This document shows positions 28,685-31,698 of a stretch of 58,949 nucleotides of DNA, piece by piece. The stretch's first letter is position 1, and each line of letters begins with the position of its first letter. Origin of the DNA: Escherichia phage ECO95 1-6-1. The notes below the pieces were generated by a model, which had not been told where the DNA came from, made no database searches, and worked only from the letters and a program-made list of their open reading frames with translations. The DNA is taken from sequence record OR845257; one strand, written 5' to 3'. A program made the translations under genes and the position numbers.

Positions 28685-29704
28685 TTATCGAGTGATGATG
28701 CCGAATTGCAAAGATTCGACGTTGTTCTGGTTCCAGTCACTTCCGCCCGGCGCTTGCTCGAACGATGCCTGATAATACTTGTACGACTCGGTGAGCGGTA
28801 CCTGAATTTCAGTCGGCGTACCGCCTTCCGTATTGACCACCAGCCCAAGTTTACGATCATCAAGATCGCCTTTGCGGGCGTACGCGATGACGGACACGGC
28901 GAAGATCTGGTTATTGTTCGGCAGCGTCACGTTCGAGCGGTACATATCGGTGGCCCCTGCGGTATTAGATTGCAGATATGGCTTCGACTCGCCGCCCGGG
29001 GAAAGCTGTGACACGATCTGATAGTGCGGCGTGGAAGACGAGGCGTTCACAACGTCCCACTGCGTAGAAACGTCGGCCGTTGGCATACGGCTGGTCACTT
29101 CGACCGGAGTCAGGCGCGCGTTGTTGCGGCTACCGGAACCATCGATCACGTAGAAGTCATCCAGTGTCTGTTCGCCCGCGTTAGGTGCGGTACCCGTCTG
29201 CCCCCAAACGATTGTGTACGTGGTGGTCGGCGCACTCGATGGCGTAACCGTTAACTGCAATTCGTTATTCGCGTAGACCTTGACGGTGTTGGCCGTCTTA
29301 TCGATCTCGATTTCGAAGTAGTACCATGCGTTCAGGATCAGCGGGTTCACGCCCAACTCTTCCCCTACGCGGATTTTCCCGGTCGTGGTGTCCCACTCGA
29401 TGTCCACGATGTTCTCGATACGCGCGATACGCATACGGGACAGCCCGGCTTTCATGGCAAATCCGAAGACGACCGACGAGGCCGTCGTGGTGAATCCCCA
29501 TGACAGGGAGGCGTTGACGGACGAACTGGCGGCCACGGTGAATTTCAGCGCGCGCGCACCAGTCCGGCGTCCCTCGACAACGGAAAAGGTGGTATCACTG
29601 GCGTTACGCACCACGTACCCGGCGGCTTCCAGATAGCCTTGTAGGGCCGTACCCGTCACGCCGATTTCGGCATAGTGGTCGTACCCGTCACAGAATTTAA
29701 ACAT
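28685..29704 (-). CDS. distal tail / receptor-binding-like protein, paralog 1 of 3
   Basis: shares N-terminal M-x-x-F-x-DGYD and blocks (YYFEIEIDKT, LDDFYVIDG, YLQSNTAGATD) with the two upstream ORFs. Confidence 0.55.
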   Translation of the reverse strand: MFKFCDGYDHYAEIGVTGTALQGYLEAAGYVVRNASDTTFSVVEGRRTGARALKFTVAASSSVNASLSWGFTTTASSVVFGFAMKAGLSRMRIARIENIVDIEWDTTTGKIRVGEELGVNPLILNAWYYFEIEIDKTANTVKVYANNELQLTVTPSSAPTTTYTIVWGQTGTAPNAGEQTLDDFYVIDGSGSRNNARLTPVEVTSRMPTADVSTQWDVVNASSSTPHYQIVSQLSPGGESKPYLQSNTAGATDMYRSNVTLPNNNQIFAVSVIAYARKGDLDDRKLGLVVNTEGGTPTEIQVPLTESYKYYQASFEQAPGGSDWNQNNVESLQFGIITR

Positions 29705-29717
29705 TTCGGTATGCTCC

Positions 29718-30680
29718 TTATGGTCTTACGATGACGCCGAACGGCGCTTCGCTGAGTCGTTCGTCATTCCAGTCTTGCCCGGCCGCGTTCGTCTCGAACA
29801 CAGCATAACTATACTTTTCAGTCGTGGATAGCGCCGCGTCGATAACTTCTTTTTGCGTGTCGCCTTTTTGGCCGATGACCATGCCTAACTGACGGTTGTC
29901 CACGTCTGACTTTTTGTTCAGCACGGTCATGCCGACGGCCAGAATGTTTTGCGTATCAGGGATAACGGTGTTTGATAGAAACGTGTCGGTCGCGCCGGAC
30001 GTGTTCGACTGGATGTACGACCCCTCGACGGGCGGCTGATTATAGACGAGCGGATAGTGGTCATTGCCAGATGACGGCGACCATTCTTTGTCCACATCCA
30101 CCATCGGCAAGCGGCTGGTGATCTGGATAGGCCCGATGCGCCCGGTATACTTACCCGGCTGGTTGTCGATGAACTGGAGATCATCGAGAAGGTACTGCGC
30201 CGTGGCAACGCCCGCCCATGTGACTTCGTAGTTAGTGACCGGGTTCGCACTCGATGGCGACGGCGCAGTGATGTCCAGCCCGTTGTTCACGTACACCTCG
30301 ATCGTGCTGGTGGTCTTGTCCAGTACCACTTCGATGTAGTACCACAAGTCCAGCAGCAGCACCGCCGTTCCGGTACCGCCCGCCGCCGAGATTTTCCCGT
30401 CAGTCTCGTTCCACGTAATCGTCGCCACGTCCTTGATGGTGACGAGCGTGTGACGTTTCCCGATCGCGCGGAAGGCAAAGCCAAACACGACCTTCGTGGC
30501 CCCGGAGGTGAACACGCGTTTCAGGCTGGCCGTGTCCGGCAGCGATACCGCCATCTGCGTAGCCACGCGCCCTTCCTCCAGTGTGGGCGTACCTGTCACG
30601 GTATACCCGCACTTGGTCAGCCCGTCTGTAACGTCAGACCAGCCGCGTAGCTGGTCAAATCCGTCCATAAATTTCAGCAT
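29718..30680 (-). CDS. distal tail / receptor-binding-like protein, paralog 2 of 3
   Basis: MLKFMDGFD..., WYYIEVVLDKT, LDDLQFID, YIQSNTSGATD. Confidence 0.55.
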   Translation of the reverse strand: MLKFMDGFDQLRGWSDVTDGLTKCGYTVTGTPTLEEGRVATQMAVSLPDTASLKRVFTSGATKVVFGFAFRAIGKRHTLVTIKDVATITWNETDGKISAAGGTGTAVLLLDLWYYIEVVLDKTTSTIEVYVNNGLDITAPSPSSANPVTNYEVTWAGVATAQYLLDDLQFIDNQPGKYTGRIGPIQITSRLPMVDVDKEWSPSSGNDHYPLVYNQPPVEGSYIQSNTSGATDTFLSNTVIPDTQNILAVGMTVLNKKSDVDNRQLGMVIGQKGDTQKEVIDAALSTTEKYSYAVFETNAAGQDWNDERLSEAPFGVIVRP

Positions 30681-30690
30681 AGTAACCCCT

Positions 30691-31698
30691 TTAAATTACT
30701 GAACGCACACCAAATTCGGCGGCTTCAACGGCGGCCTGATCATAACCGCTTGTGGTGAATTGCGCGTAACGATACTCCCAATTACGGCCAATATTCGACA
30801 GGGTAACAGTGTGGCTGTCAATGTTCGCGATAATCGACACCGGGTCGGCCGTGGCCTTCCGGACTAAGGCGATCAGTCCCTGCGCCAGAATGGCCCCGTT
30901 ATCCGGCAGTTTCGCCGTCGAGATAAACGAGTCATGGCGGTCATTCGTGCCAGTATAGATAAACTTGTTTGCCATGTCCGGCGGTAGTCTGCCGACCATC
31001 TGGTTATGTGCGGCCGTTGGGTTAGGCCCGGCCACACCCCATTCGGTATCGCGGTCGCCGTCCGGCAGTCGGCCGCTGATCTGGATGGCACCCATGCGGC
31101 CGCCGTCCTGCGCGTACATGTCGTCGAATACTTTCGTGTCCTCCGTGTACCCGGCGTCTGGCGGGAAGGAGGGCAGCATGTCGAACGGGTTGAACACCAT
31201 GCGCACGACGGCCGACGCGGCGATGACATCCGGCAGGGTGAAGGCCACGTCGGATTTACCGTTAACGAATACCTCGATAACCTTCGTTGCGCGGTTCATC
31301 ACGACTTCGTAGTAATACCAGCGCGTCGGGATCGGCGTGACATACCCGACTTCCAGTTGGTCTTCGCCCGTCTGGATGGTGATTAACGCCGACACCGGGT
31401 CGGTGTACACCACGACATGCGGAACATCGCGGCCAGTGGCGTCGCCGATCTTTAGCCCAAATAACGCGCCACGCGCCTGCTGCTTGCACGCAAAGCCTAC
31501 GGTAAGGGTATCACCACCCCACGTCCAGTCGCGCTCGTAGGCGCTGTTCAGCGTGTACATTCCGATGCTCGACGCCAGACGTCCGGCCCCGGCAGACAGT
31601 GAGCCGCGCACTTTGTACCCGGCCAGTTGCATGAACATCCCCGGGTTCGATGTGTCCGAAGACCGGAACTGCTCATATCCATCAAAATAACTTGCCAT
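30691..31698 (-). CDS. distal tail / receptor-binding-like protein, paralog 3 of 3 (most diverged)
   Basis: MASYFDGYE..., WYYYEVVMNRAT, FDDMYAQDG. Confidence 0.55.
   Translation of the reverse strand: MASYFDGYEQFRSSDTSNPGMFMQLAGYKVRGSLSAGAGRLASSIGMYTLNSAYERDWTWGGDTLTVGFACKQQARGALFGLKIGDATGRDVPHVVVYTDPVSALITIQTGEDQLEVGYVTPIPTRWYYYEVVMNRATKVIEVFVNGKSDVAFTLPDVIAASAVVRMVFNPFDMLPSFPPDAGYTEDTKVFDDMYAQDGGRMGAIQISGRLPDGDRDTEWGVAGPNPTAAHNQMVGRLPPDMANKFIYTGTNDRHDSFISTAKLPDNGAILAQGLIALVRKATADPVSIIANIDSHTVTLSNIGRNWEYRYAQFTTSGYDQAAVEAAEFGVRSVI

Follow-up and report, generated by a model that had tools for sequence, protein, structure and literature searches.

We investigated three tandem genes, here called P1, P2 and P3, in the genome of Escherichia phage ECO95 1-6-1 (sequence record OR845257; the 58,949 nucleotides analyzed are referred to as the window) and found that they are true paralogs, with similarity far beyond chance, that are under strong purifying selection and conserved rather than rapidly evolving. 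Our best explanation, in which we place moderate confidence, is that they belong to the late tail operon and encode ancient, non-redundant accessory proteins, lectin-like in fold, that would sit on the distal tail or tail fiber and act as glycan-binding adhesins. The ~6 kb around the trio was 100% identical to the record of Salmonella phage S.Hadar 4-5-1, and the trio region was 99.7% identical to Salmonella phages Siskin, BPS2, BPS4 and ER19 and shared 91%–97% identity with dozens of other Chiviruses, among them Chi, YSD1 and SPN19. Based on these nucleotide identities, the window is essentially a complete genome of a Chi-like flagellotropic siphophage (Casjensviridae, Chivirus). The same genes occur in the same order as gp32, gp33 and gp34 of Chi, YSD1_31–33 and SeF6b_022–024, with 92%–100% amino acid identity for P1.

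The three open reading frames (ORFs) are on the minus strand, exactly where a sequence-only reading of the window had placed them: P1 (335 amino acids, the most divergent of the trio; Chi gp32/YSD1_31) at 30691–31698, P2 (320 amino acids, the paralog whose structure was modeled; gp33/YSD1_32) at 29718–30680, and P3 (339 amino acids, the most conserved; gp34/YSD1_33) at 28685–29704. The similarity among them that this reading had proposed was borne out by full-length pairwise BLASTP, with 36% identity between P3 and P2 (E = 5e-66), 27% between P2 and P1 (E = 2e-24) and 24% between P3 and P1 (E = 3e-22). All three are full-length members of phrog_2448, a PHROGs family of "unknown function", which they matched end to end (P3, E = 1.7e-137 over profile positions 1–334 of 335; P2, 8.6e-136; P1, 4.1e-120). 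The C-terminal domain of P3 also matched the C-terminus of the 771-position profile phrog_30887 (E = 1e-10). A shared N-terminal motif is real as well, but its proposed wording, with F at the fourth position, should be M-x-x-[FY]-x-D-G-[FY]-[DE], because the 335-amino-acid protein has Y there. In our model of P2, the motif forms the first beta-strand (residues 2–6) of an N-terminal jelly roll. The description of the locus as a tandem triplication holds for these three paralogs, but the array has four members, the fourth being the adjacent gene X, as indicated by phrog_2448, a family hidden Markov model (HMM) and Foldseek.

The divergence among the three copies predates the phages that carry them. 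A common gene order, consisting of J, the DUF2793 gene, three family genes, X (one or two genes), Y and lysis genes, was found in eight Casjensviridae genera: Chivirus, Enchivirus (Enc34), Redjacvirus (PatoteraRojo), Zhonglingvirus (SAP012), Jacunavirus (JC01), Dunedinvirus (JS26), Lavrentievavirus (pPM_01) and Kokobelvirus (Kokobel1). About 34 IMG/VR contigs keep the same order. In simple neighbor-joining trees on Kimura distances, copies clustered by position and not by phage, with bootstrap values of 98% for the first-position clade (a), 100% for the third (c) and about 50% for the second (b). Because copies group by position across genera, we interpret the triplication as older than the radiation of these genera. 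The number of a, b and c copies was constant, and every lineage retained all three.

Across genera, amino acid identity to the window protein ranged from 83% to 59% for P3, 81% to 46% for P2, 74% to 46% for the DUF2793 protein gp31, 71% to 42% for J, 68% to 32% for P1, 54% to 23% for Y and 40% to 17% for X. By these values, two of the three paralogs (P2 and P3) are better conserved than the tail-tip protein J. We estimated the ratio of nonsynonymous to synonymous substitution (dN/dS) by the pairwise Nei-Gojobori method across seven Chivirus genomes (five for J, with a frameshifted record excluded), obtaining 0.03 for P3, 0.08 for P1 and 0.09 for P2, alongside 0.07 for both J and gp31 and 0.16 for Y. 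In a collection of 5.8 billion proteins, P2 had a single 90%-identity cluster (141 members, 97% identical), which was its only match above 83% identity.

These patterns bear on the claim of the sequence-only reading that the copies diverged under host-range selection. Under this explanation, the trio would be duplicates that diverged rapidly and now serve as alternative or redundant receptor-binding or depolymerase-associated proteins. The position in a tail-tip module and the lectin-like fold are compatible with it, as are tandem arrays in unrelated phages (contigs L053 and L054, described below, and BFVD accessions). However, each copy forms its own ortholog clade across eight genera at constant copy number, dN/dS is only 0.03–0.09, and the divergence between copies is ancient. 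Additionally, the single P2 cluster compares with about 45 for X, and ortholog conservation profiles of P1–P3 contained no hypervariable segment. The trio does not show host-tracking variation or diversifying selection. The phylogeny and selection analysis already largely refute this explanation, and we give it very little credence.

Gene X (408 amino acids, Chi gp35; 27444–28670, minus strand) is a divergent, hypervariable fourth paralog with an enlarged N-terminal domain. Its match to phrog_2448 was partial (E = 1.1e-7), and a family HMM built from all positional copies and the AchV4 homologs detected it over residues 179–405 (E = 2.7e-7). The same HMM recovered X counterparts in other genera, with an end-to-end alignment for Serratia phage JS26, and a six-frame scan of the whole window with it returned exactly four family members (P1, P2, P3 and X). 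Predicted structures of X-type orthologs in BFVD matched the P2 model by Foldseek (Providencia phage Stilesk, E = 5e-11; Enc34, 9e-8; JS26, 3e-13). Single-sequence hhalign of X against the profile A1 was weak (E = 0.035), so the link to the family needed the PHROG profile, the broader HMM and the BFVD fold matches. Cronobacter phage JC01 and Serratia phage JS26 contained five family genes each. The AlphaFold2 model of X was confident only for residues 60–250, where it predicts an all-beta, enlarged N-terminal domain; the C-terminal domain had a predicted local distance difference test score (pLDDT) of 30–50.

Among the tail genes of Salmonella Chiviruses, X was by far the most diversified. In the 5.8-billion-protein collection it formed about 45 distinct 90%-identity clusters that ranged continuously from 99% to 70% identity, and all of them came from ~59-kb contigs associated with Salmonella. 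Variability peaked at residues 21–40, 141–180 and 281–300, and the C-terminal 100 residues were conserved. Mean identity within Chivirus was 83% and synonymous sites were saturated; because dS exceeded 1, a dN/dS estimate for X is unreliable. Such diversity points to allele exchange, and X is a more promising candidate for a host-range gene than the trio. Given its clusters and variability compared with the constraint on P1–P3, diversification of the host-range type, with variation that tracks hosts, is a property of X and not of the trio.

The predicted fold of the trio is lectin-like. An AlphaFold2 model of P2 built with 42 homologs (pLDDT 95.4, predicted template modeling score 0.91) consists of two beta-sandwich domains, the N-terminal of which is modeled as a LamG/ConA-like lectin jelly roll, a beta-sandwich superposable on known members of the ConA-like lectin/glucanase fold; on this model, the trio has a lectin- or carbohydrate-binding module (CBM)-like fold. 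Sequence families barely register this resemblance. P2 scored 15 bits against Laminin_G_3 (PF13385), below the Pfam cut-off of 27.6 and hence outside the family, P1 and P3 had no match to it, and this sub-threshold hit was the sole Pfam match for the trio, with nothing in NCBIfam. PDB sequence searches with P1, P3, the family profile, gp31, X and Y gave no informative match. The motifs conserved family-wide were WYYxE, YvNN/G and LDD.

An enzymatic role was considered, in which the proteins would be polysaccharide lyases or glycosidases built on a ConA-like jelly roll that trim lipopolysaccharide (LPS) or capsule. The fold does resemble PL20 and GH16, without the motifs of either. No catalytic site was evident, with no enzyme family match in Pfam or NCBIfam and no beta-helix in the P2 model; the top matches were non-catalytic lectin or CBM modules, the conserved motifs are LamG determinants, and the GH16-type ExDxxE motif was absent. 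We regard enzymatic activity as very improbable. The suggestion that these genes are depolymerase-associated likewise finds no signature in Pfam or NCBIfam, where no glycoside hydrolase or polysaccharide lyase family matched the trio.

Evidence that proteins of this family are part of the phage particle comes from a relative, Achromobacter phage vB_AchrS_AchV4 (AchV4; Gediminasvirus, Casjensviridae). Its gp25, gp26 and gp27 matched the family profile (E = 1e-106, 4e-27 and 1e-11, respectively) and occupy the same position after J and the DUF2793 gene. The differences from the trio are considerable: identity was 25% by tblastn, the AchV4 J protein has only 888 amino acids, and gp25 groups near the b copies, with no clear a or c orthologs among gp26 and gp27. 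In purified AchV4 virions, liquid chromatography–tandem mass spectrometry detected AchV4_0025 (22 peptides, 75% coverage) and AchV4_0026 (14 peptides, 36% coverage) but not 0027 or 0028 (PMC7996906). Peptides per kDa for AchV4_0025 and AchV4_0026 were similar to those of trimeric tip proteins, which is a rough guide only. The AchV4 analogs of X and Y were not among the detected proteins.

The trio could instead be non-virion in Chivirus, comprising assembly factors or infected-cell proteins (in fiber folding, superinfection exclusion or lysis timing) whose only link to the tail genes would be co-transcription. Consistent with this, the deposited model of the Chi tail tip lacks the proteins, and the X and Y analogs went undetected in AchV4 virions. 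We think this improbable, as direct homologs were found in AchV4 virions at high coverage, the sequences have no signal peptide or membrane features, and flexible parts are expected to be missing from a cryo-electron microscopy model. That model, 8VJH, is built from gp26 (distal tail protein), gp27 (baseplate hub 1) and gp30, whereas gp31–gp36 matched no chain in the PDB, those of 8VJH included; we note that our statements on the Chi structure rest on PDB chain names and citing papers. YSD1_29 was identified as the tail fiber by immunogold labeling, as cited in PMC12264135, and the C-terminal part of YSD1_29, which is BH2P (gp30), is described there as too flexible to analyze. By elimination from the solved parts, gp32–gp34, if in the virion, would lie on the flexible distal part.

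The distal tail module, the lectin/CBM-like fold and the AchV4 virion homologs support the distal-tail part of the sequence-only reading, leaving aside host-range selection and depolymerase activity. We propose that P1–P3, each of roughly 330 residues and encoded toward the 3' end of the late tail operon, would be low-copy virion proteins on the flexible distal tail, on the gp30 C-terminal fiber and/or gp31, which is the single part of Chi that cryo-electron microscopy did not resolve. They would probably act as accessory adhesins for a host-surface glycan (LPS, a flagellar sugar or a cell-surface sugar) in the two-step adsorption of this flagellotropic phage. Since every positional copy was retained in its own right from genus to genus, the trio probably fills distinct positions in one assembly or forms a hetero-oligomer. 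X would be the variable specificity element and the main carrier of host-specific variation.

Several points weigh against the adhesin interpretation. The virion detection concerns homologs in AchV4, a distant relative that is possibly not flagellotropic. The family-wide motifs are the usual LamG fold determinants and mark no ligand site; no sugar-binding site was identified in the trio, whose lectin-like fold is generic, and we infer carbohydrate binding from the modeled fold alone. A hetero-assembly is likewise something that we purely infer. Salmonella flagellin is not known to be glycosylated, which makes binding to a flagellar sugar doubtful.

A purely architectural role is the main competing possibility, although we consider it rather unlikely. 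The trio would then be globular joints or beads that form or stabilize a long kinked fiber, or adapters that connect gp31, X and Y to gp30, and would not themselves bind a receptor. Conservation above that of J and the very low dN/dS of P3 suit structural partners, and the fixed gene order, the stoichiometric-looking AchV4 peptide counts and the location of the L053 copies directly between a small post-tape-measure protein and a tail fiber gene point the same way. On the other hand, ligand binding is the usual role of phage tail-tip domains that are ConA/LamG-like or CBM-like, the closest phage fold matches are adhesion modules, and large exposed insertions in some family members suggest an outward-facing function.

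A bolder version of the adhesin interpretation, which we think unlikely, is that P1–P3 and an exchangeable X form a fixed-order, hetero-oligomeric, pseudo-symmetric lectin-like head on a flexible gp30/gp31 fiber. If true, this head would be the still-unseen business end of Chi's only tail fiber, and by breaking threefold symmetry it could allow the fiber to grip the flagellar filament sideways or to engage a cell-body receptor. The related Klebsiella phage PIN1, which is fiber-less and non-flagellotropic, has a short J (761 amino acids), a DUF2793 protein and a 939-amino-acid spike, and it contains no P, X or Y genes, which also favors the adhesin interpretation itself. Retention across genera, together with joint loss with the long J C-terminus in PIN1, would then mark an obligate heteromeric adsorption machine.

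The phrog_2448 family is very large and phage-borne, without a Pfam or NCBIfam model. A search of 1.84 billion cluster representatives recovered 9,789 proteins at E ≤ 1e-3, of which 3,739 reached E ≤ 1e-10. The majority of the proteins had 310–360 amino acids and a full-length profile match. Variants carried added N- or C-terminal domains. In four contigs (L046–L049; proteins P0083–P0089), the middle-position gene (623–666 amino acids) had a ~300-residue repeat insertion in a loop of the N-terminal domain after about residue 55. We had considered matches of 620–635 amino acids as head-to-tail fusions of two paralogs and rejected this, as the sequences are a single copy plus the ~300-residue repeat insertion. 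The units repeat GxWxAVG...S.DG..W and look propeller-like in our reading of the motif; the insertion had no Pfam family match. Because some members accommodate so large an insertion, we marked that face of the N-terminal domain as exposed.

Tandem arrays were not restricted to Casjensviridae. Two unrelated siphophage-like contigs, L053 (80 kb; 8986–12122) and L054 (38 kb), contained three tandem phrog_2448 genes (345, 348 and 347 amino acids) between a gene for a 255-amino-acid protein, located after the tape measure gene, and a tail fiber gene; no J-like or DUF2793 gene was detected in either contig. Since these copies fall outside the Casjensviridae a, b and c clades, tandem arrays arose or persisted more than once, always in tail-tip modules. 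Neighboring BFVD accessions also include tandem arrays of the fold.

The observation of the trio and its core interpretation have been published. Gendre et al. 2022 described three phrog_2448 "carbohydrate-binding proteins" downstream of a tail module, predicted their carbohydrate-binding domains by comparison with pdb70, and proposed a tail or host-recognition role (PMC9409062). Searching the text of the literature for the locus tags gave no relevant result. Our analysis adds the age of the triplication and its positional orthology, the purifying selection on the trio, X as a diversifying fourth paralog, the proteomic link through AchV4, and the size of the family. Chi is a model flagellotropic phage, and the solved virion structure lacks the products of the final six genes of its tail operon (gp31–gp36). 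These results narrow the candidates for host recognition to gp32–gp34 as a conserved, non-redundant trio and gp35 as their diversifying relative.

Comparison with known systems gave structural and positional parallels. Among baseplates of Gram-positive siphophages, the CBM2 of the evolved Dit of phage J-1 (5LY8) and the baseplate upper protein gp23 of mycobacteriophage Douge (8ZDO) had no sequence relationship to the trio. In those phages, the CBMs are inserted in Dit or form Bpp arms, whereas P1–P3 stand alone as proteins of two domains, with genes located after a lambda-J-type hub and the DUF2793 gene and with no CBM placed in a Dit or baseplate-arm protein; the distal tail protein of Chi is a separate 562-amino-acid gene. 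Pseudomonas phage JBD30 (8RK3–8RK7) has in common with Chi a trimeric distal tail protein, hub protein 1 and the N-terminal hub of J (8RK3; E = 4e-46, 3e-43 and 9e-140, respectively; window 36809–39325 and 32448–36338). As these tip proteins are clearly homologous, JBD30 is a usable template for the docking sites of add-on proteins. In JBD30, non-identical proteins (the gp47/gp48 heterodimer fibers and the gp54 tripod) decorate the hub to grasp the type IV pilus, but they are unrelated in sequence to P1–P3, whose family profile had no PDB match. In lambda, the accessory adsorption genes stf and tfa lie 3' of J in the tail operon. This is a positional analogy with the trio; stf and tfa have other folds, belong to other families and form no paralog array.

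The trio sits among genes of a module on the minus strand. Upstream are the genes for the J-like tail-tip/central-fiber protein (1296 amino acids, Chi gp30 = BH2P = YSD1_29; 32448–36338), which matched 8VJH chain A along its full length and also Pfam Phage-tail_3, and for the DUF2793 "tail fiber" protein (246 amino acids, gp31; 31708–32448; PF10983, E = 2e-22; phrog_7049, tail fiber). Downstream are X and the final gene of the module, Y (709 amino acids, gp36; 25305–27434; phrog_7226), just after which lies a strong intrinsic-terminator-like hairpin (25264–25284) with an 8-bp stem, including 5 GC pairs, followed by TTTTTTGTGA. Each trio gene has its own Shine-Dalgarno sequence (AAGGGGA upstream of P1), and the spacers between genes are 9–14 nt. 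Based on gene order, Shine-Dalgarno sites, spacers and the terminator, the trio is among the seven genes that end the late tail operon. In all loci compared, gp31 was directly upstream of the paralog array and Y directly after X. Profile comparisons with the family were negative for Y and gp31 as additional paralogs. Y contained at least seven clean 25-residue tandem repeats (amino acids 524–686; window ~25377–25865; consensus roughly xxxVxQVLxHxxxxxxYPDxxxPx), with degenerate copies upstream of them, and had no match in Pfam, NCBIfam or the PDB.

Public orthologs of the trio are annotated as hypothetical proteins in about a hundred genomes, and some product names given to them are spurious, such as "portal protein", "histone-lysine N-methyltransferase" and "short transient receptor potential channel 6". 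In phages 35 and 37, apparent frameshifts split the genes J, X and Y. Chi-like sequence at 99%–100% identity also appears in records named for Gram-positive hosts, such as GU169904 ("Staphylococcus phage SA1"), OR844962 ("Enterococcus phage Efm 3-10") and OR849445 ("Listeria phage LM 4-14-1"), which are almost certainly contamination or mislabeled contigs. Just past the lysis cassette, the relatives (by the annotation of SeF6b, contig L001, 1448–2805) encode a PAPS-reductase-like protein and a nucleoside 2-deoxyribosyltransferase, which hints at a nucleotide or DNA modification pathway; the syntenic genes are at roughly 22300–23800 in the window, as placed by ORF position and not by alignment.

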